Source of the DNA: an uncultured Gammaproteobacteria bacterium
Lineage (GTDB): Bacteria > Pseudomonadota > Gammaproteobacteria > Poriferisulfidales > GCA-002705445
Assembly: GCA_913065025.1 (NCBI GenBank)
Contig: CAJYAP010000004.1
Coordinates: forward strand, 1 to 53,262
Direction: 5' to 3'
DNA length: 53,262 nt
Both the position numbers and the translations under genes were made by a program. Each line of letters starts with the position of its first letter. Positions within the stretch are counted from its first letter, which is position 1. Under the pieces are notes generated by a model. It was given only the letters and a program-made list of their open reading frames with translations, did not search any database and was not told the origin of the DNA. Shown here in pieces: positions 2,698-52,882 of the stretch.

Positions 2698-3157
2698 AAA
2701 AAATTTAATAATTTTTTCTATAATAATATTTATTTTTTTTTTAGATTTAATTACAAAAAATTACGCTTTAAGTAGCTTAATAATAAACCACTCAATATCT
2801 ATTAATAACTTTTTGAATTTCACTCTAGCTTTTAATCATGGAGCTGCTTTTAGTTTTTTAAGTAACGCTGGCGGATGGCAAAGATGGTTTTTTATAATAT
2901 TTAGTGTAATAGTTATTTTAATAATCACTTATATTTTAGTAAAAGAGAAAAATTCGCAGTACATTGCATTTAGTTTTGTTATTGGCGGTGCAATAGGAAA
3001 CCTTTATGATCGGATTTTGTATGGTTATGTTATTGATTTTATAGAATTTCACTATAATTCTTTTTATTGGCCAATATTTAATATAGCTGATATTGCAATT
3101 TCTATAGGAATTATATTATTGTTATACTCTATGTTTGCAAAAGAAAGTAAAAAATAA
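2690..3157 (+). CDS. lspA: Lipoprotein signal peptidase II
   Basis: NHGAAFS, GGAIGNLYDR, VIDFI, FNIAD motifs; overlaps the ileS stop. Confidence 0.97.
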   Translation: MLKKNLIIFSIIIFIFFLDLITKNYALSSLIINHSISINNFLNFTLAFNHGAAFSFLSNAGGWQRWFFIIFSVIVILIITYILVKEKNSQYIAFSFVIGGAIGNLYDRILYGYVIDFIEFHYNSFYWPIFNIADIAISIGIILLLYSMFAKESKK

Positions 3158-4099
3158 ATGAATATTATTTTAGCCAATCCAAGAGGATTCTGTGCCGGTG
3201 TTGATAGAGCTATTGAAATTACTAATAGAGCTTTAGATGTTTTTGGATCTCCAATATATGTAAAACATGAAATTGTTCACAATAAGTATGTGGTAGATGA
3301 ACTTAAAGAAAAAGGGGTTATCTTTATTGAAGATATAAATAAAGTTCCAGAATATTCTATATTAATATATAGCGCACATGGTGTTTCAGAAAAAATAGTT
3401 CAAGAATCAAGTGATAGAAATCTTCAGGTTTTTAACGCCACCTGTCCTTTAGTTACAAAAGTTCATATGGAAGTTGCAAGATTATCAAAAAAACAAATAA
3501 ACACTATTTTAGTAGGTCATAAGGGGCATCCAGAAGTTGAAGGGACTATTGGGCGTTATAACTCAACAGAAAATTCTAAGATTATCCTGGTTGAAGATGA
3601 AAATGATGTAGCAAATCTTAAATTTAATACAGAAGATCAAGTTGCATATGTTACACAAACCACATTATCAATAGATGATACAGCTAGCATTATTAACGCA
3701 ATAAAATCTAAATATAATAAAATTATTGAACCACCTAGAGGCGATATTTGTTATGCAACTACTAACAGACAGAATGCTGTCAAAGAATTAACTGATAAGT
3801 GCGATATAATTCTTGTTGTAGGTTCTGAAAATAGTTCCAATTCAAATAGATTAAAAGAAATTTCAACCAGAGCTGGGGTACCTTCTTATTTAATAGATTG
3901 CGCTAATGATCTTGATGTAGAGTGGTTGTCGAACAAAAAGAACATAGGTTTAACTGCTGGGGCATCCGCACCTGAAACTCTAGTTGCGTCAATAATAAGT
4001 AAGCTTAAAGGTTTTGGCGCTTTAAACGTAATAGAATCTGAGGGCATTGAGGAAAACATCACTTTTAAAATACCTAAAGAGCTAATAAGTAAAAGCTAG
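3158..4099 (+). CDS. ispH: 4-hydroxy-3-methylbut-2-enyl diphosphate reductase
   Basis: PRGFCAGV, ATCPLV and DICYAT cluster cysteines; SSNSNRL. Confidence 0.98.
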   Translation: MNIILANPRGFCAGVDRAIEITNRALDVFGSPIYVKHEIVHNKYVVDELKEKGVIFIEDINKVPEYSILIYSAHGVSEKIVQESSDRNLQVFNATCPLVTKVHMEVARLSKKQINTILVGHKGHPEVEGTIGRYNSTENSKIILVEDENDVANLKFNTEDQVAYVTQTTLSIDDTASIINAIKSKYNKIIEPPRGDICYATTNRQNAVKELTDKCDIILVVGSENSSNSNRLKEISTRAGVPSYLIDCANDLDVEWLSNKKNIGLTAGASAPETLVASIISKLKGFGALNVIESEGIEENITFKIPKELISKS

Positions 4100-4188
4100 A
4101 TCATCCCTATGCCTGAAAGAGCAAAATAAACTGTCAAAACACAGATTATAATACCCAAAGATAATGCAACTACTCTAAAAATATCCAT
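4096..4188 (-). CDS. Small single-pass membrane peptide, 30 aa (MDIFRVVALSLGIIICVLTVYFALSGIGMI), not in ORF track
   Basis: Hand translation; AAAGGAG Shine-Dalgarno just upstream of ATG; extended -10 TGCTATTAT at 4224-4232; one hydrophobic helix. Confidence 0.65.
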   Translation of the reverse strand: MDIFRVVALSLGIIICVLTVYFALSGIGMI

Positions 4189-4250
4189 AATATCTCCTTT
4201 TAATTTTTGTTATTTTGACATAAATAATAGCATTTTTAAATTAAAATTTT

Positions 4251-5252
4251 TTAAGATATTAATTTTTTGACAATTTTTGCAGATGATATAGCTGTTAAAA
4301 TGCCATACCTATAATGACCAAAATTATAGATCAATCTTTCATTTTTAATATCAATATTTATATATGGATCTTCTTTATCTGAATATGGTCTGAATCCATA
4401 TGTCTGCTCAAGACTAAGCATTTCTACGCTATTAGAAAATATTTCTGAAACTGATTTTTCTAAAAATATTTTTGCAGAACTAGTAATATTCTCATCAAAT
4501 CCAACATCTTCTATCGTAGCACCAACAACTATTCTGTTATCTCTCCTAGGAATAATATAATAATTATTATAAAGCAACACATTGTCAATCAACTTTTCTC
4601 TTGTTTTAAAATGAAGAAGTTGTCCCTTTATAGGCTTTAATCTTATATTTTTATTACCTAAAATATGATTACTCCAAACTCCTGCGCATAAAATTATAAA
4701 TTCATACTTATTGTTTGATGGTTTTCTTAGAAAACTATCAATTTTCTCTATTTTAGACTTTTTAAATTCTACATTATTTTTTAAAAGTGTATTCCTTAGA
4801 AAATTAATTAACTTTCTAGGGTCTAATGTATTTATATTTTCTATTTCTAGAAAATTTTTGTGAGATTCTTTTATAAATTTTTCTCTAGAATTCAAATTTT
4901 TTTTTATGTAACTCGAATTAATAACAGGATTTTCCTTATACCAATTTTTTGCGCTTTCAATATCATTTCCAAAAATTAATAAATTTTTTTTTTCAAAATT
5001 AATTTCTCTTTTATCTTTTATGCTTAGCGTGTTAAAAAAATTATTGTACTGTTCGTGCCCAGAGATACATAAGTCTTGCATATACTTTGTGTTTTTCCAT
5101 GGATTAAGAGGAAACATTATCCCTGCTGCTGATTTTGATGCTTGCCCCGTGCTCTGATTATCTATTATTGTTACCTGATGGCCAGTTTTATTAAGTTCAT
5201 AGGCTGTTGTTAAACCAACTATTCCAGAACCTATAATTACACACTTGGTCAT
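4251..5252 (-). CDS. thiO: FAD-dependent oxidoreductase, glycine oxidase ThiO-like (DAO family)
   Basis: IIGSGIVG dinucleotide motif, ASKSAAG, PIKGQ, VVGAT, GFRP, GHYRxGIL; thiS/thiG are in the window. Confidence 0.7.
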   Translation of the reverse strand: MTKCVIIGSGIVGLTTAYELNKTGHQVTIIDNQSTGQASKSAAGIMFPLNPWKNTKYMQDLCISGHEQYNNFFNTLSIKDKREINFEKKNLLIFGNDIESAKNWYKENPVINSSYIKKNLNSREKFIKESHKNFLEIENINTLDPRKLINFLRNTLLKNNVEFKKSKIEKIDSFLRKPSNNKYEFIILCAGVWSNHILGNKNIRLKPIKGQLLHFKTREKLIDNVLLYNNYYIIPRRDNRIVVGATIEDVGFDENITSSAKIFLEKSVSEIFSNSVEMLSLEQTYGFRPYSDKEDPYINIDIKNERLIYNFGHYRYGILTAISSAKIVKKLIS

Positions 5253-6106
5253 TTTTTAACTAGCGTCCCTATACCTTCATTGGTAAATATTTCTAATAAT
5301 ACTGAATGCTGTATTCTTCCATCTACAATATGTGCCATTTTCACATTTTTTTCTATTGAATTTAAACATGCTTTTATTTTAGGAAGCATACCACCAGTTA
5401 TTACATTGGTATTTATTAATTTTTCAATTTCACTAAAATTCAAAGATGATATTAATTTTTCCTCTTTATTTAAAACACCTGTTTGATCAGTTAGAAATAT
5501 TAATTTCTCGGCAGATAAATGTGATGCTATAGCACTTGCAGCTGAGTCTGCATTTATATTGTAAATATTATTGTTTTCATCAAAACCCAATGGTGCGATC
5601 ACTGGTATGTAGTTTGAATTCATAAGTTCATATAGATAGTTTGCATCAACATCTATAATTTCTCCAACGTATCCGTAATTTGTTTTACCACTAATGTATT
5701 TTTTTACTTTTATTAATCCACTGTTATTTTTTGCTAAGCCTATGGAGTTACCCCCATTATTGTTTATTAGTCCCACAATTTCTTTATTCACCAAATCGTT
5801 TAATGTGTTTGATACAACTTCAATTGTTTTTTCATCAGTTACTCTTATACCATCTATAAAGTTTCTTTTTATTCCAACTTTGCTTAATTGGTTATCAATT
5901 TGTGGCCCGCCGCCATGAACAACGACAACATTTATTCCCACCTGTTTCATTAGCGCTATATCCCTAGCAAAACTATTTTTTAAATCACTCTCAACCATTG
6001 CTGCACCACCATATTTAACAACGCAAATTTTTTTTGAAAATTTTTGTATGTATGGAAGTGCTTCTGTTAAAATTTTTATTACTTGTTCTGCTTTATTTTT
6101 TTCCAT
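5249..6106 (-). CDS. argB: Acetylglutamate kinase
   Basis: VVKYGGAAM, VVVHGGGPQI, YNINAD, GGMLPK, EIFTxxGIGT. Confidence 0.97.
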   Translation of the reverse strand: MEKNKAEQVIKILTEALPYIQKFSKKICVVKYGGAAMVESDLKNSFARDIALMKQVGINVVVVHGGGPQIDNQLSKVGIKRNFIDGIRVTDEKTIEVVSNTLNDLVNKEIVGLINNNGGNSIGLAKNNSGLIKVKKYISGKTNYGYVGEIIDVDANYLYELMNSNYIPVIAPLGFDENNNIYNINADSAASAIASHLSAEKLIFLTDQTGVLNKEEKLISSLNFSEIEKLINTNVITGGMLPKIKACLNSIEKNVKMAHIVDGRIQHSVLLEIFTNEGIGTLVKK

Positions 6107-7487
6107 TTGGAATCTCTAATGTGGAATCAATATTAAGTATCTCACTTGTAAACTTGTCTTGTATTTCTTTCAACTCTTCTTCTGTATTAGCTTCAAATCT
6201 CATAACTAAACATGGAGTTGTGTTAGAAGCTCTTACTAATCCCCATCCATTTTTGAAATCTGCTCTTAAACCATCAATTTTAGAAATTTCTGCTCCATCA
6301 AAATTTACTTTGCTGCAGAATTTTTTCATAAATTCATGCTGATTACCATCTTTATCAACTTTTATATTTATTTCTGGAGTGGAATAAGAAGATGGTAATT
6401 CGTCGAATATTTCACTGCTTTTCTTATTTTCATTTGATATTATTTCGAGCATTCTTAAACTAGCATATATTCCATCATCAAACCCAAACCATCTATCCTT
6501 GAAAAATATATGTCCTGACATTTCTCCACCTAATATAGCGTTAATCTCTTTCATCTTCATCTTAATATATGAATGTCCTGTTCTAGACATTACCGGTATA
6601 CCTCCATACTCTTTTATATATATGGGTAAATCTTTTGATGATTTAACATCAAAAACAATTTTTTCATTTGCATTTTTTGACAAAATATTTTTAGAGTAAA
6701 GCATCATTTGTCTATCAGGCCATAGAATATTTCCTAAATTATCTATTATCAAACATCTATCACCATCACCATCAAATGCGACTCCTATATCGCATTTATT
6801 TTCTTTAACAGACGATATTAAATTAATTAGATTTTTTGGCTCACTAGGATTTGGGTGATGATTTGGAAAATTTCCATCTATATCGCAATATAAATCTATA
6901 ACCTCAAGACCTAATTTTTTATAAATTTTTAGAGAGATTGGTCCTGCTGCACCATTACCTGCATCAATAGCTACTTTTAATTTTTTGTTAATTTTTATGT
7001 CCTTTAATATAGCTTCTAGATAATTCTTTTCTATATTTATTTTCTCTTCACCTACTTCTGAATTCTTATTTATTTTTTTTAAATTTTTGCTTAAAATTTT
7101 ATTGTATATATTTTGGATTTCTTCACCAGCTAGAGCGTGGTTGTCCATAATAATTTTTAAACCATTGTAATTTTTTGGATTATGACTCCCTGTAACAATA
7201 ATTCCTGAATTGACCTTGAAGTAATTTACTGCAAAATATAAAAGTGGTGTTGGGACTTGGCCAATGTCTATAACTTTTTTCCCACTTTCTAACAGCCCTC
7301 TAATTAATGTATTAGATATAGCTTCGCTTGATAGTCTTCCATCTCTGCCAACAACTATTATGTCATTATCTTTTTGGTATAGATCACTTAAAGATCTTGC
7401 TATTAAGTCTATAGATTCTAGAGTTAGTTCTTTTTTATAGATCCCTCTAATATCATAAGCCTTGAATATTGTTTTTAATACTTTCAT
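6093..7487 (-). CDS. algC: Phosphomannomutase/phosphoglucomutase
   Basis: IFKAYDIRG, TGSHNP phosphoserine loop, FDGDGDR, GEMSGH, RASNT; dut-algC-argB synteny. Confidence 0.93.
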   Translation of the reverse strand: MKVLKTIFKAYDIRGIYKKELTLESIDLIARSLSDLYQKDNDIIVVGRDGRLSSEAISNTLIRGLLESGKKVIDIGQVPTPLLYFAVNYFKVNSGIIVTGSHNPKNYNGLKIIMDNHALAGEEIQNIYNKILSKNLKKINKNSEVGEEKINIEKNYLEAILKDIKINKKLKVAIDAGNGAAGPISLKIYKKLGLEVIDLYCDIDGNFPNHHPNPSEPKNLINLISSVKENKCDIGVAFDGDGDRCLIIDNLGNILWPDRQMMLYSKNILSKNANEKIVFDVKSSKDLPIYIKEYGGIPVMSRTGHSYIKMKMKEINAILGGEMSGHIFFKDRWFGFDDGIYASLRMLEIISNENKKSSEIFDELPSSYSTPEINIKVDKDGNQHEFMKKFCSKVNFDGAEISKIDGLRADFKNGWGLVRASNTTPCLVMRFEANTEEELKEIQDKFTSEILNIDSTLEIPNGKK

Positions 7488-19391: not shown

Positions 19392-19408
19392 TGGCACAAA
19401 ATATGCAT
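19392..19408 (+). promoter_or_regulatory. sigma54 (-24/-12) promoter of glnA
   Basis: TGGCAC-AAAAT-ATGCAT, GG-N10-GC, about 50 nt before the glnA ATG; AGGAG SD at 19446-19450. Confidence 0.8.
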
Positions 19409-19456: not shown

Positions 19457-20863
19457 ATGTCAGATATAATGAAAACAATAAAGGAGAATGACGTCAAATT
19501 TGTTGATTTGAGATTCACTGATACAAAAGGCAAAGAACAACATGTAACAATTCCCGTAGGCGCAGTAGAAGAATCTTTATTCGAAGATGGTAAAATGTTT
19601 GATGGTTCTTCGATTGCTGGCTGGAAAGCAATTAATGAGTCAGATATGATCCTTATGCCAGATGTTGACACAGCAGTTATGGACCCATTCTTCAGTGATC
19701 CAACTTTAACAGTTAGGTGTAATATTCTTGAGCCTAGTACTGGAGAAGGATACAGTCGTGACCCAAGATCTATTGCTAATAGAGCTGAAAAATATTTAGT
19801 AGACTCCGGTATCGCAGACACAGCTTATTTTGGCCCTGAGCCAGAATTTTTTATATTTGATTCAGTTACTTATGGTAATGAAATCGGAGAATCGTTTTAT
19901 AGAGTTGAGTCAGAAGAGGGTTGTTTTAGCTCTGGAGAACAATACGAAGATGGAAACACTGGTCATAGACCAGGGGTTAAAGGGGGTTATTTTCCTGTGC
20001 CACCAGTTGATTCTTTCCAAGATATTCGTTCTGCAATGTGCAACGTTCTCGAAGAAATGGGTGTAGAAACTGAAGTGCATCATCATGAAGTTGCAACTGC
20101 TGGACAATGTGAAATCGCAACCAAGTTCGACACAATGGTAAAAAGAGCAGATAAAAACCAAGTGATGAAATATGTAATACACAATGTGGCTCATAATTAT
20201 GGAAAAACAGCTACATTTATGCCTAAACCTATTATTAATGATAATGGTAATGGTATGCACGTACATCAATCATTATTTCTAAATGGAGAAAATTTATTTT
20301 TAGGTAATAAATATGGTGGTTTATCAAAACTTGCCCTACATTATATCGGTGGAATTATAAAACATGCAAAAGCTATAAATGCTTTCTCTAACGCAGCTAC
20401 AAATAGTTATAAAAGACTAGTGCCAGGTTTTGAAGCTCCAACTATTTTAACTTATTCTGCTAAAAATAGATCTGCAAGCATAAGAATTCCTTATGTTGCG
20501 AATGACAAAGCTAGACGAATTGAAGTAAGGTTCCCTGACGCATGTGGAAATCCTTATCTTACATTTACAGCGCTAATGATGGCTGGGCTTGATGGGATTA
20601 AAAATCAAATAGATCCAGGACCAAATATGGATATTGATCTGTTTGATGATCTTAGTCCCGAAGACGAAGCTAAAATTCCTCATGTATGTTCTTCTCTTGA
20701 TGAAGCTCTGAAGTCTTTAGATGAAGACAGAGAATTTTTAAAAGCAGGTGGCGTTTTTGATGACGATACAATAGATGCATATATAGCTCTTAAGATGGAG
20801 GAAGTGCAAGCTTTTCAAGCCAATACTCATCCACTAGAGTTTGAAATGTACTATAGCTTATAA
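19457..20863 (+). CDS. glnA: Glutamine synthetase type I
   Basis: [58 protein letters not shown]. Confidence 0.99.
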
Positions 20864-20874
20864 TAGTTACTTTA

Positions 20875-20897
20875 TAACGCTCTTTTACAGGGCGTTA
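20875..20897 (+). terminator. Stem-loop after glnA (weak terminator or stabiliser)
   Basis: TAACGCTCT-TTTAC-AGGGCGTTA, a 9-bp stem with one G-U; short U tail. Confidence 0.55.
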
Positions 20898-20907
20898 CTT
20901 CAAAAAA

Positions 20908-20952
20908 ATAATGCACTTTTATAGTGCATTATCAATTGCCTTACTATACAAT
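20908..20952 (+). promoter_or_regulatory. NtrC box overlapping the -35 of a putative sigma70 ntrB promoter
   Basis: ATAATGCAC-TTTTATA-GTGCATTAT (TGCAC-N7-GTGCA with palindromic flanks); GTGCAT-17 nt-TACAAT. Confidence 0.82.
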
Positions 20953-20958
20953 TAGTAA

Positions 20959-22056
20959 ATGACTCATTTTACAAATAAGAATAATAAAGAAATAAAAGCA
21001 TTTAATTTTATAGAAATGGACTTTAATATCTTAGATAATATTTCGACATCTATAATAATCACCAATAAATTTATGGAGATTGTTCATGTCAACGCTTCAG
21101 GCGAAAATTTTCTTAGTAATAGTAAAGCTAACCTAACAAATGTAAAAATTTCTGAGATTTTTGCAAAAAAAAATAATATTATTCTAAGCCAGGTTTATGA
21201 TGCTATTGCTTTAAATCAGTCATCGGTTTCTAGGGATATTGAGGTTTCTTTAAGGAATAAATCCAAGGAGAGGTTGGACTGCAATGTTCAGACTATTTTT
21301 GCAAATGAAGAAAAGTATGTCTTGCTTGAGATTAATACAGTTCAAAGGCAAAAAAATATAATAAATAATTCAGATTATATGGATAGAAGTAACGCAACTC
21401 AAATGATAACGAGATCTATAGCCCATGAGATAAAAAATCCATTAGGTGGCATAAAAGGTGCTGCACAGTTACTCGAAAATGAAATAAGTGAAGAACATAA
21501 AGATTACATAGAAATAATTATTAATGAAGTTGATAGATTAAAAAATTATATAGATAAAATGGTTGGCCCAAGAAATGAACCTGCTTTTAAATCTGTAAAT
21601 ATCCATTCAATAATTGAAAGAGTGCTACAAATATCTAGCGCCAAAATAAAAATAAAAAATACTTTCAAGAGGGACTTCGACCCTAGCATCCCAGATGTAA
21701 TTGTTGATGAAGATATGATAATCCAGTCTTTATTAAATATAGTAAAAAACGCTCAAGAAGCTATTACGACTAAAGGTGAAATTGAATTAAAAACAAGAGT
21801 TGAGAGAAATTATACTATAAATTCTATAAAGCATAAGTTGGTAGTCATAATAAGCGTTATTGATAGTGGTATTGGAGTTAGTGATGAAATTAAAAATAAA
21901 TTATTTTTACCTTTGGTAACTGATAAAACACAAGGTTCTGGTTTAGGACTTTCTATATCTCAAAGATTAGTATCTCTCAACAATGGGATAATCGTTTTTG
22001 AAGAATTCCAAAATAAAACAATATTTAAAATTATTTTACCTATTGAGAATCATTAA
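20959..22056 (+). CDS. ntrB: Nitrogen regulation sensor kinase (PAS + HisKA + HATPase); start may be 21016 (MDFNIL)
   Basis: AHEIKNPLGGIKGAAQLL H-box, FKRDFDPSIPD, QGSGLGL; glnA-ntrB-ntrC order. Confidence 0.95.
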   Translation: MTHFTNKNNKEIKAFNFIEMDFNILDNISTSIIITNKFMEIVHVNASGENFLSNSKANLTNVKISEIFAKKNNIILSQVYDAIALNQSSVSRDIEVSLRNKSKERLDCNVQTIFANEEKYVLLEINTVQRQKNIINNSDYMDRSNATQMITRSIAHEIKNPLGGIKGAAQLLENEISEEHKDYIEIIINEVDRLKNYIDKMVGPRNEPAFKSVNIHSIIERVLQISSAKIKIKNTFKRDFDPSIPDVIVDEDMIIQSLLNIVKNAQEAITTKGEIELKTRVERNYTINSIKHKLVVIISVIDSGIGVSDEIKNKLFLPLVTDKTQGSGLGLSISQRLVSLNNGIIVFEEFQNKTIFKIILPIENH

Positions 22057-22057
22057 T

Positions 22058-23455
22058 ATGGATAACTTAAAAAATATATTCGTTATAGACGATGATAAAT
22101 CAATAAGATGGGTCTTAGAAAAAGCTCTTACAAAAAAAGGTTTTAATGTTTTTTGTTATAAAACATCTGAAGATATGATTAATGCCTTAGAAGAGGTGGT
22201 GCCAAATGTTATTATTTCTGATGTAAGAATGCCGGGGCTTAGCGGAATTGATTTATTAGACAAAATTAAAAGAGAATACCCGTCTATACCTATAATTATA
22301 ATGACTGCATTTTCAGATATGGAAACTACTGTAGATTCTTTAAAAAAAGGGGCATATGACTTCGTAACCAAACCATTTGATATTAATGAAGTTACTGCTC
22401 TTATTGATAAAGCCCATAAAAATTCATTCAATAATAATTTTTCAGAAAAAATAGAACCGTCTAAAAATGTTAGTAAAATTATTGGTACTTCAGAGTCCAT
22501 GCAAACTATATATAAATCTATTGGAAAAATTGCTCAAACTGATATCGAGGTTTTAATACTTGGAGAAACCGGCACAGGTAAAGAGTTAATAGCCAAAGCA
22601 ATACATGATAATAGTGCTAGAAAAGATAAGCCTTTCATTGCCATTAATACTGGTGCAATACCAACTGAGCTTCTTGAATCAGAATTATTTGGGCATGAAA
22701 AAGGATCTTTTACAGGTGCTTATAATCAAAGAATTGGTAGATTTGAGCAAGCCTCAGATGGAACCTTGTTTTTAGATGAAATTGGAGATATGCCACTGGA
22801 TGTCCAAACAAGATTATTAAGAGTATTACAAGAAGGGGAATTCTTCAGAGTTGGTGGTTCAAAGTCAATTAAAGTAAAAACTAGAATCATCACCGCGACA
22901 CATAAAAATCTTAAATCGCTTGTGAATAAAGAAATTTTTAGAGAAGACCTTTTACATAGAATAAATGCCGTTAAAATTGAATTGCCAAATTTAAAAAACA
23001 GGAAGTCTGATATTATCAATTTAGCAGAGCACTTTATGCGATATTATTCTCAAGAATATAAATCCTCATTAAAAGTTCTAAATGACGATGTCAAAAAGGT
23101 TTTTCTAAAATATGATTGGCCAGGGAATATTAGAGAGCTACAAAACGTATGTAAGTATCTTTCCGTAATGTCCGTAAATTCAGATGTAGTAGTTGCAGAT
23201 TTACCAAGGGAATTAGTGAATGAAGGAATAGATTCTAATATCAATATAAATTGGGAAGAGGTATTCGAATCATGGATTCTTAGTGAGTTTAATAAAGATT
23301 CTAAAGATATTTCAAAAAATATTGATAGTATTTATGAATCTATACTTATTAAGTCTGCATTAACGTTATCTGAGGGAAATAAAACGGAAGCAGCGAGAAT
23401 ATTAGGTTGGGGAAGAAATACGATATCAAATAAAATGAAATCTATTGAGAAATAA
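22058..23455 (+). CDS. ntrC: Nitrogen regulation response regulator, sigma54 activator
   Basis: SDVRMPG receiver, GETGTGKE, ELFGHEKGSFTGA, WPGNIRELQN, AARILGWGRNT HTH. Start moved to MDNL at 22058. Confidence 0.96.
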   Translation: MDNLKNIFVIDDDKSIRWVLEKALTKKGFNVFCYKTSEDMINALEEVVPNVIISDVRMPGLSGIDLLDKIKREYPSIPIIIMTAFSDMETTVDSLKKGAYDFVTKPFDINEVTALIDKAHKNSFNNNFSEKIEPSKNVSKIIGTSESMQTIYKSIGKIAQTDIEVLILGETGTGKELIAKAIHDNSARKDKPFIAINTGAIPTELLESELFGHEKGSFTGAYNQRIGRFEQASDGTLFLDEIGDMPLDVQTRLLRVLQEGEFFRVGGSKSIKVKTRIITATHKNLKSLVNKEIFREDLLHRINAVKIELPNLKNRKSDIINLAEHFMRYYSQEYKSSLKVLNDDVKKVFLKYDWPGNIRELQNVCKYLSVMSVNSDVVVADLPRELVNEGIDSNININWEEVFESWILSEFNKDSKDISKNIDSIYESILIKSALTLSEGNKTEAARILGWGRNTISNKMKSIEK

Positions 23456-27809: not shown

Positions 27810-29111
27810 ATGAAAGTTTTCAAATACAAAAATGTTTTAATTATATTCGCATTAACATTTGCTATTATTACTATGTTTTACTTCAAAAATAGTAGTAGCG
27901 CTTATGCATCCAAAACAAGTCTTCCTCTTAATCAATTGCAAGCTTTCTCTGAGGTATATTTGAAAATAAAACAAAATTATGTTCAAGATATAACTGATAA
28001 GGAGTTATTTGATAACGCAATTAAAGGAATGCTTGAGGGTCTTGACCCGCATTCAACTTTTTTAAATGAAAAAGATTTTAAAGATCTTCAAATAGGAACC
28101 AAAGGTGAATTTGGAGGCTTGGGCATAGAAGTAACAATGGAAGATGGTTTTGTTAAAGTTATAACGCCGATTGATGATACTCCAGCCTATAAAGCTGGTG
28201 TTAAATCTGGAGACCTAATAATAGAGATAGACGCAAAGCCAGTTAAAGGGTTATCTCTTAATCAGGCTGTAGATTTAATGAGAGGAAAAGTTGGTAGCCC
28301 AATTTTGCTAACAATTGCAAGAACAGGGGAAAATGGACCGATAGAAATTAAAATCGTCAGAGCTAAAATTAAGGTTAAAAGTGTAAAATATGAGATTATT
28401 GATGATAATTATGGATATATAAGAATTTCTAGCTTTCAAAATAAAACTGGGAATAATTTATATGACGCAATATCTAATTTAAAAAAGGATGCAAAAGGGA
28501 ACATAAAAGGTTTCGTAATAGATATGAGAAACAACCCTGGTGGAGTTCTTGGTGCAGCAGTTGATGTAAGTGATGCTTTTATAAAAGGTAAGAAGAAACT
28601 AGTTTTTACTAAAGGGAAAACTGAAAATGCAGTATATGAATTCACTTCAAATAATACTGATCTAGCTGAAGGGAAACCCATAGTTGTATTAATAAATGGT
28701 GGCTCAGCTTCAGCATCTGAAATTGTGGCAGGTGCTTTACAAGATCATAAAAGAGCAATAATTATGGGAACGCAGTCTTTTGGAAAAGGGTCTGTTCAAA
28801 CTATATTGCCGATTACATCTAAAACTGCAGTAAAAATAACTACAGCTAGATATTACACTCCTAACGGAAGATCTATTCAAGCTAAAGGTATTACACCAGA
28901 TATCATTGTGAAAGATTTAGAATTGAGCTCACTAAATAAGAATAAAATGATAAAAGAGTCTGACTTAAAGGGCCACTTAAAAAATACAGATAAGAAAAAT
29001 AAAGACGGTGAGCCGCAAGCTCAGAATAAAAAACTCGAAAATGACTACCAATTATCAGAGGCTATAAATCTATTAAAAGGCTTAAATATATTGTCTTTAC
29101 GAAAAAAATAA
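27810..29111 (+). CDS. ctpA: Carboxy-terminal processing protease (S41)
   Basis: LDPHS, GLGIEV PDZ, DMRNNPGG, SASASEIV, QSFGKGSVQ, TTARYYTP. Confidence 0.93.
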   Translation: MKVFKYKNVLIIFALTFAIITMFYFKNSSSAYASKTSLPLNQLQAFSEVYLKIKQNYVQDITDKELFDNAIKGMLEGLDPHSTFLNEKDFKDLQIGTKGEFGGLGIEVTMEDGFVKVITPIDDTPAYKAGVKSGDLIIEIDAKPVKGLSLNQAVDLMRGKVGSPILLTIARTGENGPIEIKIVRAKIKVKSVKYEIIDDNYGYIRISSFQNKTGNNLYDAISNLKKDAKGNIKGFVIDMRNNPGGVLGAAVDVSDAFIKGKKKLVFTKGKTENAVYEFTSNNTDLAEGKPIVVLINGGSASASEIVAGALQDHKRAIIMGTQSFGKGSVQTILPITSKTAVKITTARYYTPNGRSIQAKGITPDIIVKDLELSSLNKNKMIKESDLKGHLKNTDKKNKDGEPQAQNKKLENDYQLSEAINLLKGLNILSLRKK

Positions 29112-46727: not shown

Positions 46728-47246
46728 TTATTGTCTATCAATATTTTTCTGTAATATAAAATTCTTTAGCATTTGCTTTTTCATAGCTTCGGAGAGAATT
46801 TTCTTAAGCTCTATACATGTGTAAGCATTTATGACATTTTTATCATATAAGCTAACTTTAAGATTTTTTTTATCAAATTTTAATTTGACTTCATTGTTTA
46901 TAATTTCTTCGCTAAAGTCTTTTGTAGAATAAAAACTTCCCATATTGAAAGAATTTTTTATTATATTATCTTCAATATAAATACTGTTTCCGTTATCCCA
47001 TTTATCACTTTTATATATTAAACCTATTTTATTTTCAGATTGAATCAAACTTATATCTTTATTAGCTTTATAGTTTTTTCTCTGGTCGGTACTAGGTTTT
47101 AAATTACATGAATAAAATTCACCTTTTGAAAATGAATTTAATATATTATTTAAATTTTTTTTATCTGTATACTCATATTGTTCAGTACAGCCTAATATAC
47201 TCATTAATAAAATTGAATAAATTATAATTTTTGTATTCCTTATCAT
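46728..47246 (-). CDS. Hypothetical lipoprotein
   Basis: Lipobox ILLMSILG-C after a basic N-terminus. Confidence 0.6.
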   Translation of the reverse strand: MIRNTKIIIYSILLMSILGCTEQYEYTDKKNLNNILNSFSKGEFYSCNLKPSTDQRKNYKANKDISLIQSENKIGLIYKSDKWDNGNSIYIEDNIIKNSFNMGSFYSTKDFSEEIINNEVKLKFDKKNLKVSLYDKNVINAYTCIELKKILSEAMKKQMLKNFILQKNIDRQ

Positions 47247-47267: not shown

Positions 47268-47816
47268 TCATTCATCAAAAGATATCTCTTTAACATATAT
47301 TTTTGCTTTATAATCTTTACCATAAGCAACAATGCCAATTGATTTTATATTTTTAGAATTTATTGTACTTGCTTGAAATGCTCCTGATTTTTTGAATTTT
47401 TTTATTGGTAAAATGAATTCTTTATATTTTTCTTCAACAGTAAAGCTATGTTGATAATACTGCCAGGGTAATATTGTCCCTGTCGTTCTCAAATGTACGA
47501 AATATTTTTCATTATTTCCTTTTGCAATAATTTTTATATTATTTACTCCGTCCAATGTAATTCCTTTCATATTTCTTCTGAACTGTATAAACCCACCATT
47601 ATTTTCTGTAGAGACATTACCTGATAAATGTGCAATTGACTGACCCTCTATAATTGAAAAATCAATTGAACCTGTTGAAACACCGCCCATAACATTATCT
47701 GATATAAATTTCCATTGAGATGGGTCTTGAAAATTATCTTTATAAAGGCTTCCAGCAAAAGTTTTTTGATTCATAATTATTATACAAAATATCAGAAGTA
47801 ATATTATTTTTTTCAT
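47268..47816 (-). CDS. CIA30/NDUFAF1 family protein with signal peptide
   Basis: W.FISDNVMGGVS, G.VSTENNGGF, WQYY, FILP...FK. Confidence 0.88.
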   Translation of the reverse strand: MKKIILLLIFCIIIMNQKTFAGSLYKDNFQDPSQWKFISDNVMGGVSTGSIDFSIIEGQSIAHLSGNVSTENNGGFIQFRRNMKGITLDGVNNIKIIAKGNNEKYFVHLRTTGTILPWQYYQHSFTVEEKYKEFILPIKKFKKSGAFQASTINSKNIKSIGIVAYGKDYKAKIYVKEISFDE

Positions 47817-47856
47817 GTCATCAATATAGCAAAGTATTAATACTTCTTACAGTAGC

Positions 47857-47873
47857 TTGGCATGTATATTGCA
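47857..47873 (+). promoter_or_regulatory. sigma54 (-24/-12) promoter upstream of the glucosylglycerate cluster
   Basis: TTGGCATG-TATA-TTGCA, one mismatch to TGGCACG-N4-TTGCW. Confidence 0.75.
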
Positions 47874-47889
47874 TTTACAAGGATGTAGT

Positions 47890-47997
47890 ATGAATTCTAT
47901 AGCTGAGATTCGTCCTTTTTTCCTATTTCCCCTCTCAGCCTATAGAATTCTTCTTTCAGCATATTCTATTTATTATTTCTTGCGAAGAAGATACTAA
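47890..47997 (+). CDS. Putative 35-aa hydrophobic peptide (MNSIAEIRPFFLFPLSAYRILLSAYSIYYFLRRRY)
   Basis: AAGGA SD 6 nt before ATG; overlaps the hairpin, so it may be non-coding. Confidence 0.35.
   Translation: MNSIAEIRPFFLFPLSAYRILLSAYSIYYFLRRRY
47892..47950 (+). other. Long inverted repeat/hairpin: 17-bp stem with 1-nt bulge and 24-nt pyrimidine loop
   Basis: GAATTCTATAGCTGAGA ... TCTCAGCCTATAGAATTC. Confidence 0.8.
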
Positions 47998-48045
47998 TGA
48001 TTAATATGATAGAATAAAAAATTACTAGCTAACAATATAAACTTA

Positions 48046-48888
48046 ATGACATATAAAATTAAAAATTTATGCGCTCTAATTTTTACAGATCTTGATGCAT
48101 CGTTCCTTAATAAAAGTAATTTTTCTTTTGGTAATAACATGAATATTACAAAAAAAATTTTCAAGGATGACAATTTTGTAATATTTAATACTAGTAAAAC
48201 ATTTATTGAATTAAATTATTTTTTCCAACAACAATCATACGATTTACCATTTATATGTGAAAATGGGGGCGGAATATATTCTCCTAAAAGATACTTCAAC
48301 AATGCTGCTCATACAAGAGATGGATATAATGTTATCTTCGAGTCAACCAAAATAAATAAAAAAATAAGTAAAATTAAGAGAGCTATTCTTCAAATATTTG
48401 GAGAACATTGTACTTTTTATAACGACCTCAACGATTTTGAGAAACAAAAATTCTCTGGTCTTAATGAGAAAGAATTAATGAATGCTTCGCGCAGAGAATT
48501 TACTGAGTTAATAATATGGAAATCAGATTATGAAAATCTTATTAAATTTAATGATTATTTGCATACTCATGACCTGAAAATTATTAAAGGGGGGAGATTT
48601 CACCATATATCAAATAATATAAATAAAGGAATATCCATGCTTAGACTTGTCAATGAATATAAAAAATATTACCCTAGTAAAAAATTTGTCACTATTGCAA
48701 TTGGGGATAGTGAGAACGACTTAGAGATGCTTAACTGCGTTGACTATCCTTGTTTAGTTAAAAGTAACGATAGTCAAACTTTTATAAAAAATATTAAATC
48801 TAGTAATTTATTTATTAGCGATAGAGAAGCGCCTGAAGGCTGGGAAGATTGTGTAAATCAGGCATTCGAGCAGATAAGGAGGCAATAA
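48046..48888 (+). CDS. Glucosyl/mannosyl-3-phosphoglycerate phosphatase (HAD-IIB)
   Basis: IFTDLD, NTSKT, ICENGG, RREFTE, GGRF.H, GDSENDLEML. Confidence 0.9.
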   Translation: MTYKIKNLCALIFTDLDASFLNKSNFSFGNNMNITKKIFKDDNFVIFNTSKTFIELNYFFQQQSYDLPFICENGGGIYSPKRYFNNAAHTRDGYNVIFESTKINKKISKIKRAILQIFGEHCTFYNDLNDFEKQKFSGLNEKELMNASRREFTELIIWKSDYENLIKFNDYLHTHDLKIIKGGRFHHISNNINKGISMLRLVNEYKKYYPSKKFVTIAIGDSENDLEMLNCVDYPCLVKSNDSQTFIKNIKSSNLFISDREAPEGWEDCVNQAFEQIRRQ

Positions 48889-50102
48889 TGGCTGATTTTC
48901 ATCAAAATGGTGTAGTAAGTACACTGCATAATATTTCAAATAGGTCAGCAGAAGATCTTGAAAAGGAGCTTATTGTCTTTTCAAAAAAAAGACCAATTGA
49001 TTTAATTTTGCCATCTTTATATTCAGAAATAGAGGGTCCTGCTTTAAAAAATATTATTAATATATTATCTAAAGTTAAATATTTGAATCACATCACAATT
49101 GGATTAGACAAAGCTGATAATAAACAATTTATAAAGGCAAAAGAATTTTTTTCTAATTTAAATCAGCCACATTCTGTGATCTGGAATGATGGCCCACGTA
49201 TGAAAGCCCTTGATAACGAATTAAATAAAAAAGGGTTGGCGCCTGGTGAATCAGGTAAAGGAAAAAACGTATGGTATTGCATGGGCTATGTACTTGCACG
49301 TGATGAAGCAAGATCTATCGCGTTGCATGATTGCGATATTTTAACTTATGATAAAGAATTGCTAGCTAGGCTGGTTTATCCAGTTGCAAACCCTCTTTTT
49401 AATTACGAATTTTGTAAAGGATACTATCCAAGAGTAGGTAACAATAAACTAAATGGAAGAGTGACTAGACTACTAGTAACTCCATTACTAAAAGCACTCA
49501 AAAAGGTTTTAGGCCCAAGAGAATATATAGAATTTATTGATGTTTTTAGATATCCATTAGCTGGAGAATTTTCTTTTAGAAGTAGAATGCTTAAGGAATT
49601 AAGAATCCCAAGCGACTGGGGCCTTGAAATAGGAATCTTGTCTGAGATGCAGCGAAATCACGCTCAAAATAGAATATGCCAAGTTGATATTGCAAAAATA
49701 TATGACCACAAACATCAAGAAATTTCTTTAAAAGATAAAGAAAAAGGACTATCTAAAATGTCTATTGATATTTCAAAAACATTAATTAGAAAACTTGCTG
49801 CTCAAGGAGATACTTTTACATCAAATAACTTAAGGACAATTAAAGCGACCTACTACAGAACAGCTTTGGATCTTCTTGAAATATACCATAACGACGCAAA
49901 GCTAAACGGTTTAGATATAAATATTAATGATGAAGAAATAATGATTGAAATGTTTGCAAACAATATTATCATCGCTGGACAGGAGTTTTTAAATAAACCA
50001 AATCATAATCCATTAACACCGAATTGGAATAGAGTTCAAAATACTTTACCCGACTTTAAAGATAAGTTTATCCAAGCAGTCGACGAAGATTCAAAAATTT
50101 AG
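48888..50102 (+). CDS. gpgS: Glucosyl-3-phosphoglycerate synthase-type glycosyltransferase
   Basis: MADFHQNG..TLH, LILPSLYSE, GKGKNVW, HDCDI, RYPLAGEF, DWGLEIG; AGGAGG SD. Confidence 0.85.
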   Translation: MADFHQNGVVSTLHNISNRSAEDLEKELIVFSKKRPIDLILPSLYSEIEGPALKNIINILSKVKYLNHITIGLDKADNKQFIKAKEFFSNLNQPHSVIWNDGPRMKALDNELNKKGLAPGESGKGKNVWYCMGYVLARDEARSIALHDCDILTYDKELLARLVYPVANPLFNYEFCKGYYPRVGNNKLNGRVTRLLVTPLLKALKKVLGPREYIEFIDVFRYPLAGEFSFRSRMLKELRIPSDWGLEIGILSEMQRNHAQNRICQVDIAKIYDHKHQEISLKDKEKGLSKMSIDISKTLIRKLAAQGDTFTSNNLRTIKATYYRTALDLLEIYHNDAKLNGLDININDEEIMIEMFANNIIIAGQEFLNKPNHNPLTPNWNRVQNTLPDFKDKFIQAVDEDSKI

Positions 50103-50121
50103 TTATAATAAGAGAATAAAG

Positions 50122-51870
50122 ATGCTTGATAGTAAAAGTTTTTCAATAAGATTAGAACAACATCTAGTAAAAATATATGGTGGAGTAAAAACAACAAAAG
50201 AGATAAAACAAGTTTCCAATGATTTGTTAGTGTTTATTGAATCTAAATTTAGTAAGAATCCTCCAAAATTTTTAAATAACGTAAGTAAATGGTCTGAAAA
50301 AGATACTATTTTAATATCATATCCAAATTCTATAGTTGAAAACAAAAGAAAGCCTTTATCTACATTAAAAAAATTTTTAGATAAACATTGTATGAATATG
50401 GTTTCAATTATTCATATTTTACCTTTTTTCCCCTCAAGCTCAGACCAAGGTTTTTCAGTTAAAGATTATTATTCTGTTGATAAAAATTTTGGTTCTTGGG
50501 ATGACATTAAGAGAATAAGTCAAAAATTTTCAGTCATGGGTGATGTAGTATTAAATCATGGCTCATCAAAAAGTAAATGGTTTGAAAACTTCTTAAATGG
50601 AAGTGGCCCAGGCTCAAAATATTTTTTAACTGCTGATAAGAATCTTGATTTATCAACGGTCACTAGGCCAAGAACGAGTGATTTACTTTCAAAAGTAGAT
50701 ACTGCAAATGGTGAAAAATATGTTTGGTGTACTTTTAGCGAAGACCAAGTTGATTATGATTTTGAAAATTTCGAAGTTTTAAAAGAATTTATATCTATAA
50801 TAACTTTTTATCTAGAAAACGGTATATCAGTTTTTAGATTTGATGCTGTTGCATTTTTATGGAAAAAAATTGGCACAGGCTGTGTAAATCTTCCAGAAAC
50901 ACATGAAATAGTCCGGCTTTTTAGAACAATATTAGACTATTTGGCGCCTAGTGCGATATTGGTAACGGAAACAAACACCCCAGCAAGAGAGAACGTCACT
51001 TATTTTGGTAACGCAAATGAGGCTCATTGGATCTATAATTTTTCGTTACCTCCAATTTTAATATATACGGTTCTTAAAGGCGATTCTTCGTATCTCGAAA
51101 AATTAACCATGAGTCTGCCGCCTGCACAATTAGGAGCATCATATCTCAATTTTGTTGCTTCCCATGATGGCATTGGACTTAGGCCTATTGAAGGAATGAT
51201 GAGTAAAAGTGAAATAAATAAGCTTATTAATAAAATGAAAAATAATGGTGGTGAAATTTCATATAGAATAAATAAAGATAATAAGGAATCTCCTTATGAA
51301 ATTAATATTTCACTTTTTGATGCTATGCAGGAGACACTAAATGGAAATGAAGATTTCCATTTTGATAGATTTTTATGCATACATATAATTATGCTATCTC
51401 TTGAGGGTGTGCCTGCTTTTTATATTCACAGCCTATTCGGAACAAAAAATGATCAAAATCTTTATTCCAAAACTAATAAAAAAAGAGACCTAAACAGACA
51501 TGTTTTTGAAATTGATAACCTAAAGAAAATTATTGACGATGAAAATAATCATGGAAGTTTTATTTTTTATAAATTAAAAAATCTAATTGCTATTAGAAAA
51601 AAGCAAACAGCCTTCCATCCAAATGCTGTGCAATTTACGCTTCATTTAGGTAAAAACTTTTATGGTGTATGGAGACAAAGTTTAGACAAATCTCAAAGCA
51701 TTTTTTGCATAACAAATGTAACAGATGAAAATAGAGAATTCTCTTTAATGGACATTAACTTAATAGGTTTTGATCAGTGGAGAGATTTAATTAGCAATAA
51801 AACTTTATCTGATATTCATTCAAAAATTACATTAAAACCTTACCAAACAATTTGGGTTAGTAATAAATGA
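50122..51870 (+). CDS. GH13_18 phosphorylase, probably glucosylglycerate phosphorylase
   Basis: HILPFFP, RFDAVAFLWK nucleophile, TETN acid/base, ASHDGIG, YEIN loop. Confidence 0.85.
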   Translation: MLDSKSFSIRLEQHLVKIYGGVKTTKEIKQVSNDLLVFIESKFSKNPPKFLNNVSKWSEKDTILISYPNSIVENKRKPLSTLKKFLDKHCMNMVSIIHILPFFPSSSDQGFSVKDYYSVDKNFGSWDDIKRISQKFSVMGDVVLNHGSSKSKWFENFLNGSGPGSKYFLTADKNLDLSTVTRPRTSDLLSKVDTANGEKYVWCTFSEDQVDYDFENFEVLKEFISIITFYLENGISVFRFDAVAFLWKKIGTGCVNLPETHEIVRLFRTILDYLAPSAILVTETNTPARENVTYFGNANEAHWIYNFSLPPILIYTVLKGDSSYLEKLTMSLPPAQLGASYLNFVASHDGIGLRPIEGMMSKSEINKLINKMKNNGGEISYRINKDNKESPYEINISLFDAMQETLNGNEDFHFDRFLCIHIIMLSLEGVPAFYIHSLFGTKNDQNLYSKTNKKRDLNRHVFEIDNLKKIIDDENNHGSFIFYKLKNLIAIRKKQTAFHPNAVQFTLHLGKNFYGVWRQSLDKSQSIFCITNVTDENREFSLMDINLIGFDQWRDLISNKTLSDIHSKITLKPYQTIWVSNK

Positions 51871-52425: not shown

Positions 52426-52443
52426 TTGGCATAATATATGCAT
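52426..52443 (+). promoter_or_regulatory. sigma54-like promoter upstream of the DUF2721 gene
   Basis: TTGGCATAATATATGCAT, GG-N10-GC; predicted +1 falls at about the ATG. Confidence 0.6.
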
Positions 52444-52453
52444 AGTAAAAAAT

Positions 52454-52882
52454 ATGAATATTGATAATAACTTTTTCTGGTACCCTGCATTACTTTTCCC
52501 TGCAATACCAATCATGCTTCTAGTTTTTACAAATAAATATACTGCATTAGCTATGCTAATTAGAAAATTGCATATCATGTCTCAAAATAATGAAATAAAT
52601 AATTTATCAGCTGAGAGAATTCAAATATTAGCTAGCAGAATGCAATTACTAAGATGGATGCAAACTTTCTCCAGCATATCTTTTCTATTTAATTTAGTTA
52701 CTATTTTTTGCGGATTTGTTGGTCTTCCAAATTATGCATTAATTTTTTTTATAATTTCTGTTATTTTTTTAATATTAGCAATGTCACTTTTTATAATTGA
52801 ATCACAACAATCACATTATGCACTTAGTCTGCATATTCAAGACTTGGAAGCATATAATAAAGATAAAATTTCTACTAACTAG
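52454..52882 (+). CDS. DUF2721 family membrane protein
   Basis: PALLFPAIP..LL..TN.Y.AL..LIR.LH, I..L..R..L.R.MQ. Confidence 0.75.
   Translation: MNIDNNFFWYPALLFPAIPIMLLVFTNKYTALAMLIRKLHIMSQNNEINNLSAERIQILASRMQLLRWMQTFSSISFLFNLVTIFCGFVGLPNYALIFFIISVIFLILAMSLFIIESQQSHYALSLHIQDLEAYNKDKISTN

Follow-up and report, generated by a model that had tools for sequence, protein, structure and literature searches.

The window analyzed here is a 53,262-nt stretch of a contig from the 0.98-Mb assembly of an uncultured Gammaproteobacteria bacterium. Toward its end, three genes for glucosylglycerate (GG) metabolism follow one another on the + strand. The first (48046-48888) encodes a HAD-IIB phosphatase of the mannosyl/glucosyl-3-phosphoglycerate phosphatase (MPGP) family, GpgP-like, which scores 160.5 bits against TIGR01486, below the cut-off of 164.75, and whose gene adjoins that of the synthase. 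The second (48888-50102) encodes a 404-aa glycosyltransferase like glucosyl-3-phosphoglycerate synthase (GpgS). It matches NCBIfam NF040724, a model of the Methanococcoides/Persephonella type, over the full length with 355 bits (E 4e-106), below the cut-off of 700; its close homologs are named 'glucosyl-3-phosphoglycerate synthase' or 'glycosyl transferase' in their sources, and it remotely matches structures of mycobacterial GpgS. We treat the product as GpgS-like. Its start was placed at the ATG at 48888, which overlaps the phosphatase stop codon as TAATG and couples the two genes translationally (the longest open reading frame starts with TTG at 48849). The third gene (50122-51870) encodes a GH13 enzyme, GH13_18-like and resembling sucrose phosphorylase; in the PDB it comes closest to sucrose, glucosylglycerol and related phosphorylases (E 4e-51 to 2.5e-43), it falls below the cut-off of the sucrose phosphorylase equivalog, and it is probably a glucosylglycerate phosphorylase. 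A previous, sequence-only reading of this DNA had named the three products as phosphatase, synthase and phosphorylase, and at the family level those identities stand. Since the operon includes a phosphorylase that would degrade the solute, that reading's idea of a switch for synthesis is too simple.

A 229-nt gap separates a divergent CIA30-domain gene (47268-47816, - strand) from the phosphatase ATG at 48046, and it holds a -24/-12 element, TGGCATGTATATTGCA, at 47858-47873 (+). Written as TTGGCATG-TATA-TTGCA, the motif covers 47857-47873, with GG at 47859-47860 and GC at 47871-47872 in the GG-N10-GC arrangement. It differs from TGGCAC-N5-TTGCW by one mismatch, agreeing at 15/16 pattern positions and 10/11 specified positions. 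The window contains only one other match with at most one mismatch, at 19392 before glnA. Two matches where 0.98 are expected is not significant (27/100 shuffles reach two), and the case that the motif is real rests on position and comparison, not on this count. In a PWM scan of the whole assembly the site ranks fourth among all sites, and third among those that are intergenic and correctly oriented, after the sites of glnK-amtB and of a secreted porin-like ORF. The + strand from 47700 to 48046 gave no prediction of a sigma-70-like promoter or of a terminator. Transcription from the element would start at about 47883-47885, some 12 nt past the GC. Every promoter consensus position is conserved in three sister genomes (G002, G009 and G012), although part of this conservation across four close genomes could stem from overlap with the promoter of the divergent CIA30 gene. 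The earlier proposal of a -24/-12 match pointing into the phosphatase-synthase-phosphorylase genes is thus borne out: the site is intergenic, on the + strand and directly followed by a compact operon, and its GG-N10-GC core is kept in the three sisters, with equivalent sites in other gammaproteobacterial lineages. A perfect 14-bp palindrome, AAGTATTAATACTT, also lies in the gap at 47833-47846, 11 nt 5′ of the -24 element; it is not conserved in G012.

Behind the promoter lies a 59-nt leader stem-loop (47892-47950, +), with arms at 47892-47908 and 47933-47950 (17-18 bp, 18 predicted pairs) enclosing a 24-nt C/U-rich loop. In this genome one pair of the stem has changed from A-U to G-C in a compensatory manner, and the loop contains UCCU/UCCCC motifs complementary to purine-rich ribosome-binding sites. 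The hairpin had no match in Rfam at gathering or permissive thresholds. Like the promoter, it is conserved in the three sisters. In G009 and G012 the two elements lead a triad of genes (circularly permuted ATP-grasp, Alpha-E, transglutaminase) that continues into the GG genes, its last gene overlapping the phosphatase gene by 10 nt; the hairpin there ends about 6 nt 5′ of a purine-rich Shine-Dalgarno (SD)-like stretch, GGGAAAAGGA, and 16 nt 5′ of the ATP-grasp ATG. G002 retains the triad ATG and about 95 nt of the triad 3′ end, which proves that the triad was deleted. In the window the deletion left a spacer at 47951-48045 (+), the last ~25 nt of which align with the 3′ end of the sister transglutaminase gene. 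As the triad is deleted here and in one sister, the promoter abuts the GG genes. On this comparison, the promoter and hairpin are inherited from a longer triad-GG operon, a point that the sequence-only reading missed. A loss of the triad from the genome was considered and rejected: contig C14 carries a second, divergent triad (61/43/38% identity), and the loss concerns the GG-linked copy alone. Every triad found in the family has a sigma-54 site.

The triad is that of the Anbu-type operon (circularly permuted ATP-grasp, Alpha-E and transglutaminase, with or without the Anbu peptidase), reportedly described by Valas and Bourne in 2008 and by Iyer in 2009. In G009 and G012 the same triad is headed by the promoter and leader described above, whereas here it is deleted at the GG locus, and no Anbu peptidase gene was seen. 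An Anbu-type operon with the triad is induced in nitrogen-limited Pseudomonas putida (PMC5666114, PMC6376114). The papers that we examined describe no single operon in which the triad is joined to GG genes.

Use of the promoter would call for RpoN and an enhancer-binding protein. A search with the model of the RpoN DNA-binding domain (DBD) was negative, but the activator-interacting and core-binding domains (AID and CBD, 319 aa; 150 and 45.6 bits) are encoded at the end of contig C9, where the gene is cut off, and the rpoN loci of relatives bridge the end of C9 and the start of C5, placing the DBD in the assembly gap between them. The absence of rpoN was therefore rejected; with the N-terminal two domains at a contig end, it is an artifact of that gap. 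Among same-genus genomes 11/14 have rpoN. The sole enhancer-binding protein found in this genome is NtrC (21998-23455, +; Sigma54_activat 242.5 bits), encoded by the last gene of glnA-ntrB-ntrC, behind the NtrB (NRII) sensor kinase gene (20959-22056, +). Exactly one strong Sigma54_activat protein, an NtrC above the TIGR01818 cut-off, occurs in this genome and in 7/8 further genomes of the genus, 97-98% complete ones included; the eighth (G011) is missing rpoN, NtrC and GpgS together. The sequence-only reading had left RpoN to be confirmed and the activator to inference. The rpoN gene is present, and because NtrC is the only enhancer-binding protein, here and in every examined genome of the genus that has one, the activator is constrained and not guessed.

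The nitrogen regulon of this genome provides reference sites. The glnA gene (19457-20863) is preceded by the sigma-54 promoter TGGCACAAAATATGCA at 19392-19407 (+), and the other strong, well-placed intergenic sites genome-wide precede glnA and glnK-amtB. A canonical NtrC box with one mismatch, CGCACTATATTTGTGCA, lies about 108 nt upstream of glnK-amtB. Within 300 nt upstream of the GG promoter no NtrC box (TGCAC-N7-GTGCA) with at most two mismatches was found, the best candidate being a three-mismatch sequence at -240; the same range upstream of glnA in this genome has none at that threshold either. NtrC sites may be degenerate in a genome of 30% GC. A further sigma-54-like motif, TGGCATAATATATGCA at 52427-52442 (+), lies 27 nt before a DUF2721 gene (52454-52882), an arrangement conserved beside GG genes in other genera. 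As in the NtrB/NtrC-sigma-54 systems of glnAp2 and glnK-amtB in Enterobacteria and Pseudomonas, the promoters have a -24/-12 architecture, a PII gene (glnK) is present, and the genome's own glnA and glnK-amtB have the same promoter type, with ntrB and ntrC following glnA. Unlike the NtrC targets of those bacteria, the candidate target here is an osmolyte pathway and not a gene for nitrogen assimilation or scavenging, its promoter lacks a recognisable NtrC box upstream, and NtrC is the sole activator and carries a GSFTGA loop rather than GAFTGA.

Sigma-54 sites recur at GG loci well outside this genus. In 17/28 gammaproteobacterial GG loci, from about 7-9 lineages, a site of at least 13 bits lies 20-260 nt before the first operon gene; by chance 0.011 would be expected per locus, or about 0.3 loci in total. 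Weaker sites occupy the equivalent position in L040, L042, L053, L054 and L057, and some GG carriers are without any such site: G014 (L037), of the same genus, L038 and L077. Cultivable carriers with the architecture seen here include Methylophaga sulfidovorans DSM 11578, a Cellvibrionales isolate and Reinekea forsetii. Alphaproteobacterial GG loci had no sigma-54 sites before the operon, so the pattern appears restricted to Gammaproteobacteria. Methylophaga carries a perfect NtrC box in an intergenic position, 79 nt 5′ of a sigma-54 site, before a cation-efflux gene that precedes the GG genes. A divergent 161-aa ORF of other lineages was compared with the window ORF at 46728-47246; the two are unrelated, and their equivalence was rejected.

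A link between GG and nitrogen status, on which the sequence-only reading drew, is documented. GG accumulates under nitrogen limitation in marine cyanobacteria (PMC11970481), in mycobacteria (PMC5381378) and, as Kleist 2017 is cited in PMC9062515, in Dinoroseobacter shibae. In marine picocyanobacteria gpgS is co-expressed with the NtcA regulon (PMC11970481). As here, the pathway in these organisms consists of GpgS and a phosphatase and is tied to nitrogen status, and the logic is that of a nitrogen-free anion taking the place of glutamate. However, regulation there is by NtcA or of the GlnR type with sigma-70, or the regulator is unknown, whereas here a sigma-54 promoter and NtrC would be used. 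GG accumulation induced by nitrogen limitation in marine picocyanobacteria was reportedly already described by Klahn et al. in 2010. Our literature search found no paper joining GG genes to RpoN, NtrC or sigma54 and, for proteobacteria, none naming a regulator that ties GG to nitrogen limitation.

Given the above, 47858-47873 is likely a functional sigma-54 promoter through which NtrC drives the GG operon under nitrogen limitation, the promoter and hairpin having come from a longer operon. As far as sequence can support it, the sigma-54/NtrC reading is well supported. In vivo, nitrogen starvation would induce the operon: phosphorylated NtrC, the only enhancer-binding protein of the genus, would open the sigma-54 closed complex at 47858-47873. 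The transcript would begin near 47884 with a stable 5′ stem-loop and would read, meeting no recognisable terminator, into the coupled phosphatase-GpgS-phosphorylase genes. The cell would then accumulate glucosylglycerate, the presumed product and a nitrogen-free anionic solute, once glutamate becomes costly. On the same reading, a deletion removed the first three genes of an ancestral operon (ATP-grasp, Alpha-E and transglutaminase, then the GG genes) that is intact in sisters.

We think it unlikely that the promoter and hairpin are instead a relic of the triad operon, weak or halted at the hairpin, with most transcription of the GG genes coming from a sigma-70 promoter that went unrecognised within the AT-rich 95-nt remnant. 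In favour of this, the sigma-54 promoter was demonstrably that of the triad, the deletion junction has decayed in this genome, and -10-like hexamers are plentiful in AT-rich DNA. The U-rich stretch 3′ of the hairpin also fits, as a long hairpin with UUCUUCUUUC behind it could act as a transcription attenuator, and G014 has the same GG genes without a sigma-54 site. Yet the overlap of the GG genes with the last triad gene in G009 and G012 makes them dependent on the same promoter, and the consensus positions and stem were all retained after the deletion in two genomes. In addition, the + strand between 47700 and 48046 yielded no sigma-70-like prediction that could serve the GG genes and no terminator, and independent lineages place a sigma-54 site directly before them.

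It is improbable, and more so than a relic, that the promoter serves primarily to produce not an mRNA but a small non-coding transcript, consisting of the 59-nt stem-loop and its anti-SD-like C/U-rich loop, that acts in trans or as an attenuator. Sigma-54-dependent small RNAs exist, among them Qrr, GlmY and NrsZ, and both the stem, conserved with its compensatory change, and the complementarity of the UCCU/UCCCC loop to purine-rich ribosome-binding sites would suit one. Against this, the SD-like stretch and the ATP-grasp ATG follow so closely behind the stem in G009 and G012 (about 6 and 16 nt) that the structure is a 5′ UTR there; the locus offers no canonical terminator or Rfam match, and no second copy of the hairpin was found in any genome. 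Least probable is a chance likeness of the 16-mer to the consensus, with its conservation due solely to overlap with the divergent CIA30 gene promoter: the window count of two against about one expected and the restriction of the exact locus to four close genomes would allow it, but the site is in the genome's top four, the top-ranked intergenic sites that accompany it, those of glnK-amtB and glnA, are textbook nitrogen-regulon promoters, and sigma-54 sites recur before GG operons and every triad of the family with differing flanking genes, which a CIA30 promoter cannot explain.

Returning to an NtrC-driven GG operon, its recurrent sigma-54/NtrC promoter would give the link between nitrogen and GG a concrete mechanism, for marine gammaproteobacteria that are abundant, uncultured and streamlined as well as for the cultivable Methylophaga, Cellvibrionales and Bermanella. 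More tentatively, the locus could be part of a 'nitrogen-starvation island' run by NtrC and sigma-54 and conserved in marine gammaproteobacteria, although we regard this as doubtful. Such an island would comprise GG synthesis, the triad, the DUF2721 membrane protein and an unannotated ~160-aa protein, each with its own sigma-54 promoter and repeatedly linked or fused. If so, the triad, whose function has remained unknown after 15 years, would act in the same response as the osmolyte switch, for example by reclaiming nitrogen from glutamate or peptides while glucosylglycerate steps in, and the leader hairpin, with its anti-SD loop, would gate translation as well. With a single enhancer-binding protein, the genus offers a minimal sigma-54 regulon of glnA, glnK-amtB, the porin-like gene, the ATP-grasp triad, DUF2721 and the osmolyte genes. 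Membership in it would hint that the uncharacterised triad and DUF2721 function in nitrogen starvation, and the GG-operon promoter offers a transcript marker for nitrogen stress in ocean metatranscriptomes.

The sequence TTGGCATGTATATTGCA at 47857-47873 on the forward strand (GG at 47859-60, GC at 47871-72) differs from the sigma-54 consensus TGGCAC-N5-TTGCW at one position. The sequence-only reading had taken it for the best -24/-12 match in the window; the match is indeed strong, but it is equalled by one other site, TGGCACAAAATATGCA at 19392, upstream of glnA. As two matches this good were observed against 0.98 expected, which is within chance, the motif count alone proves nothing. The motif lies in a 229-nt gap between a divergent gene for a CIA30-domain protein (47268-47816, reverse strand) and a compact row of forward-strand genes into which, as had been proposed, it points. 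The first of these (48046-48888) encodes a HAD-IIB phosphatase of the mannosyl/glucosyl-3-phosphoglycerate phosphatase family. The second, for a GpgS-like glycosyltransferase, begins with the ATG at 48888, overlapping the stop codon of the first in the string TAATG, and the third encodes a 582-aa GH13 enzyme (50122-51870) with sucrose, glucosylglycerol and related phosphorylases as its closest solved structures. Both GpgS and the phosphatase gave full-length matches to their NCBIfam models, with scores under the curated cut-offs; the pathway is therefore assigned at the family level. Close homologs of the GpgS-like protein are very common in marine metagenomes and are named glucosyl-3-phosphoglycerate synthase by some sources. 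Over 47700-48046 on the forward strand, prediction gave neither a sigma-70-type promoter nor a terminator. A perfect 14-bp palindrome (AAGTATTAATACTT, 47833-47846) lies 11 nt 5' of the -24 element; it is kept in the sister genomes G002 and G009, with a single change in one arm, and is not kept in a third, G012. An operator is one possible role; alternatively, it may belong to the CIA30 gene promoter.

The assembly (0.98 Mb in 36 contigs, 83% complete, 30% GC) gave no match to the sigma-54 DNA-binding domain in a domain search. Its relatives are uncultured marine MAGs and SAGs of about 1.1 Mb, deposited as 'Gammaproteobacteria bacterium' or 'Thiothrix sp.', and 11 of 14 genomes of the genus encode rpoN. 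In this assembly, the rpoN loci of these relatives align to two contig ends, the final 1.5 kb of C9 and the initial 1.4 kb of C5, and an ORF running off the end of C9 has the sigma-54 activator-interacting and core-binding domains. Accordingly, rpoN is present and interrupted only by an assembly gap, with its N-terminal domains at the C9 end and the remainder in the C9/C5 gap. In proteobacteria, NtrC is the expected nitrogen regulator. The window itself carries glnA-ntrB-ntrC (19457-23455, forward strand), and its NtrC scores over the TIGR01818 cut-off and has the loop GSFTGA. NtrC is the sole true Sigma54_activat protein in this genome, as in seven of eight further genomes of the genus examined, 97-98% complete ones included; within the genus only NtrC can therefore serve a sigma-54 promoter. 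The eighth, G011 (98% complete), is without rpoN, NtrC and GpgS together and so offers, within the genus, a naturally sigma-54-free genome for comparison.

When the entire assembly was scanned with a simple position-weight matrix, the glucosylglycerate site ranked fourth, and few sites are both intergenic and correctly oriented: those 5' of a secreted porin-like ORF, glnK-amtB (with a one-mismatch NtrC box about 108 nt upstream), the glucosylglycerate genes, glnA and a circularly permuted ATP-grasp gene on contig C14, along with weaker ones 5' of PPK2 and DUF2721. Setting these last two aside, the sites are predicted to define a regulon that is small and consists of nitrogen-type genes. A search of the 300 nt upstream of the glucosylglycerate promoter gave no NtrC box, and glnA in the same genome likewise has none, so with a genome this rich in AT the NtrC sites may be degenerate.

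Recurrence of the promoter was assessed by fetching 44 loci of GpgS relatives, mapping their genes and counting the 28 gammaproteobacterial ones with usable upstream sequence. At 17 of the 28, a sigma-54 site scoring 13 bits or more lies 20-260 nt ahead of the operon's first gene, against 0.011 expected per locus from a background of 29 sites per 653 kb of strand. The 17 represent about 7-9 separate lineages with differing neighbours: the window's genus, locus L039 (TGGCATGTAAATTGCT), the L044/45/46/48/76 group (CGGCATGTWAATTGCA, 41-43 nt 5' of the ATG), Bermanella, an Alteromonadaceae MAG, Methylophaga, Piscirickettsiaceae and Methylophagaceae MAGs, and Cellvibrionales (TGGCACAATATCTGCT). Weaker sites occupy the same position at L040, L042, L053, L054 and L057. 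No such site was found in G014, a related genome with the operon behind tRNA-Leu, at L038 and L077, or at any alphaproteobacterial locus fetched. Methylophaga has an intergenic NtrC box, a perfect match, 79 nt 5' of a sigma-54 site, which is followed by a cation-efflux gene and then the glucosylglycerate operon. Many of these lineages have, at the head of the operon, a PRK-family kinase that either stands alone or is fused to the phosphatase; judging from its family, the kinase is probably a glycerate 3-kinase. Within this kinase ORF there are also near-perfect NtrC boxes, such as TGCACCAAAATGGTGCT (L060 1978, L063 2366, L050/L052 4351, L051 4357, L057 4345, L061 1608, L062 4119, L064 3315). 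They keep a constant reading frame (peptide H-Q/H-N/K/V-G/S-A), the His codon always being CAC, and are either a coding coincidence or an enhancer 3' of the promoter.

From the observed motif, context, machinery and comparative recurrence, we infer that low nitrogen, sensed via PII/NtrB, would lead to phosphorylation of NtrC, which would bind DNA and activate the sigma-54 holoenzyme sitting on 47858-47873. Transcription would be induced from about 47884, giving a transcript with a 5' stem-loop that would run on into the coupled genes for the phosphatase, GpgS and the phosphorylase, and with the metabolite made, the cell could swap glutamate for an N-free anionic solute. As the phosphorylase would be co-transcribed, the operon would control turnover and not synthesis alone. 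The physiology of such a replacement is already documented in picocyanobacteria (PMC11970481), mycobacteria (PMC5381378) and Dinoroseobacter (as cited in PMC9062515). The literature searched held no paper tying glucosylglycerate genes to RpoN or NtrC, in line with the earlier view that such control was not known to be described. The new element would be the sigma-54/NtrC link, which is well supported by the comparison and moderately surprising; cultivable carriers would allow a direct test.

A stretch of 131 nt spanning the promoter occurs once in each of the three sister genomes, with every consensus position kept. Just 3' of the predicted start, a 17-18-bp stem (47892-47908/47933-47950) encloses a 24-nt C/U-rich loop; the stem is conserved in the sister genomes, and the window's genome shows a single compensatory change in it, from A-U to G-C. 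The hairpin, which had no match in Rfam, could attenuate transcription. In G009 and G012, a Shine-Dalgarno-like stretch (GGGAAAAGGA) lies about 6 nt beyond the stem and an ATG about 16 nt beyond it, opening a triad of circularly permuted ATP-grasp, Alpha-E and transglutaminase-like genes. The last overlaps the phosphatase gene by 10 nt, and triad and glucosylglycerate genes likely form one sigma-54 operon in these genomes. G002 retains the triad ATG together with roughly 95 nt from the triad's 3' end, showing that a deletion took place, and in the window's genome the alignment to the triad is down to some 25 nt ahead of the phosphatase ATG. After deletion, the promoter, with all consensus positions, and the stem were kept in both. 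In G009 (L032 1920-5768), the phosphatase and phosphorylase genes are broken up into several ORFs, and in-frame stops interrupt GpgS; these features reflect either indel errors in long reads or a cluster in decay.

Outside the window, at C14 4578-7805, there is a second, divergent triad (61/43/38% identity) with its own sigma-54-like promoter (TGGTACAAAGCTTGCA) 25 nt 5' of the ATG, and the triads of G014, G016 (another related genome) and L042 have sigma-54 sites too. The Anbu-type operon containing the triad is reported to be induced in N-limited Pseudomonas putida (PMC5666114, PMC6376114). In L079 (an alphaproteobacterial MAG, 1261-7239; GpgS 37% identical), the triad is directly 5' of the phosphatase-GpgS genes, as also at L042 and L039; its presence there even in a distant alphaproteobacterium suggests recurrent linkage of the two modules.

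Adjoining the glucosylglycerate genes, a DUF2721 gene has a sigma-54-like motif 26-27 nt 5' of its ATG in the window (52427-52882), G009 (L032 1336-1362, reverse strand) and the L044/46/76 group, another genus-level lineage (L044 4153-4605). Membership of the same NtrC regulon is probable for DUF2721, and its mRNA may be almost leaderless. At L039, a like motif is found at the corresponding place beyond the operon (about 9124, reverse strand). Divergent to the phosphatase gene is an ORF of 153-205 aa without any Pfam match (reverse strand: L042 4607-5224, L044 4602-5087, L039 4582-5043; also L045, L048, L040 and L054). At L039, L042, L045 and L048 it has its own sigma-54-like motif (TGGCATGATTTATGCT type) back-to-back with the glucosylglycerate promoter, predicting two divergent sigma-54 promoters inside about 60 bp. 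More unusual as a lead is the linkage of the glucosylglycerate genes with the triad, DUF2721 and this unannotated small protein, all three of which have sigma-54 sites of their own. Elsewhere in the window, 28617-28839 on the reverse strand gave a gathering-level Rfam match to the Rickettsia sRNA47 (Rp_sR47, 78.9 bits), which probably reflects a conserved coding region.
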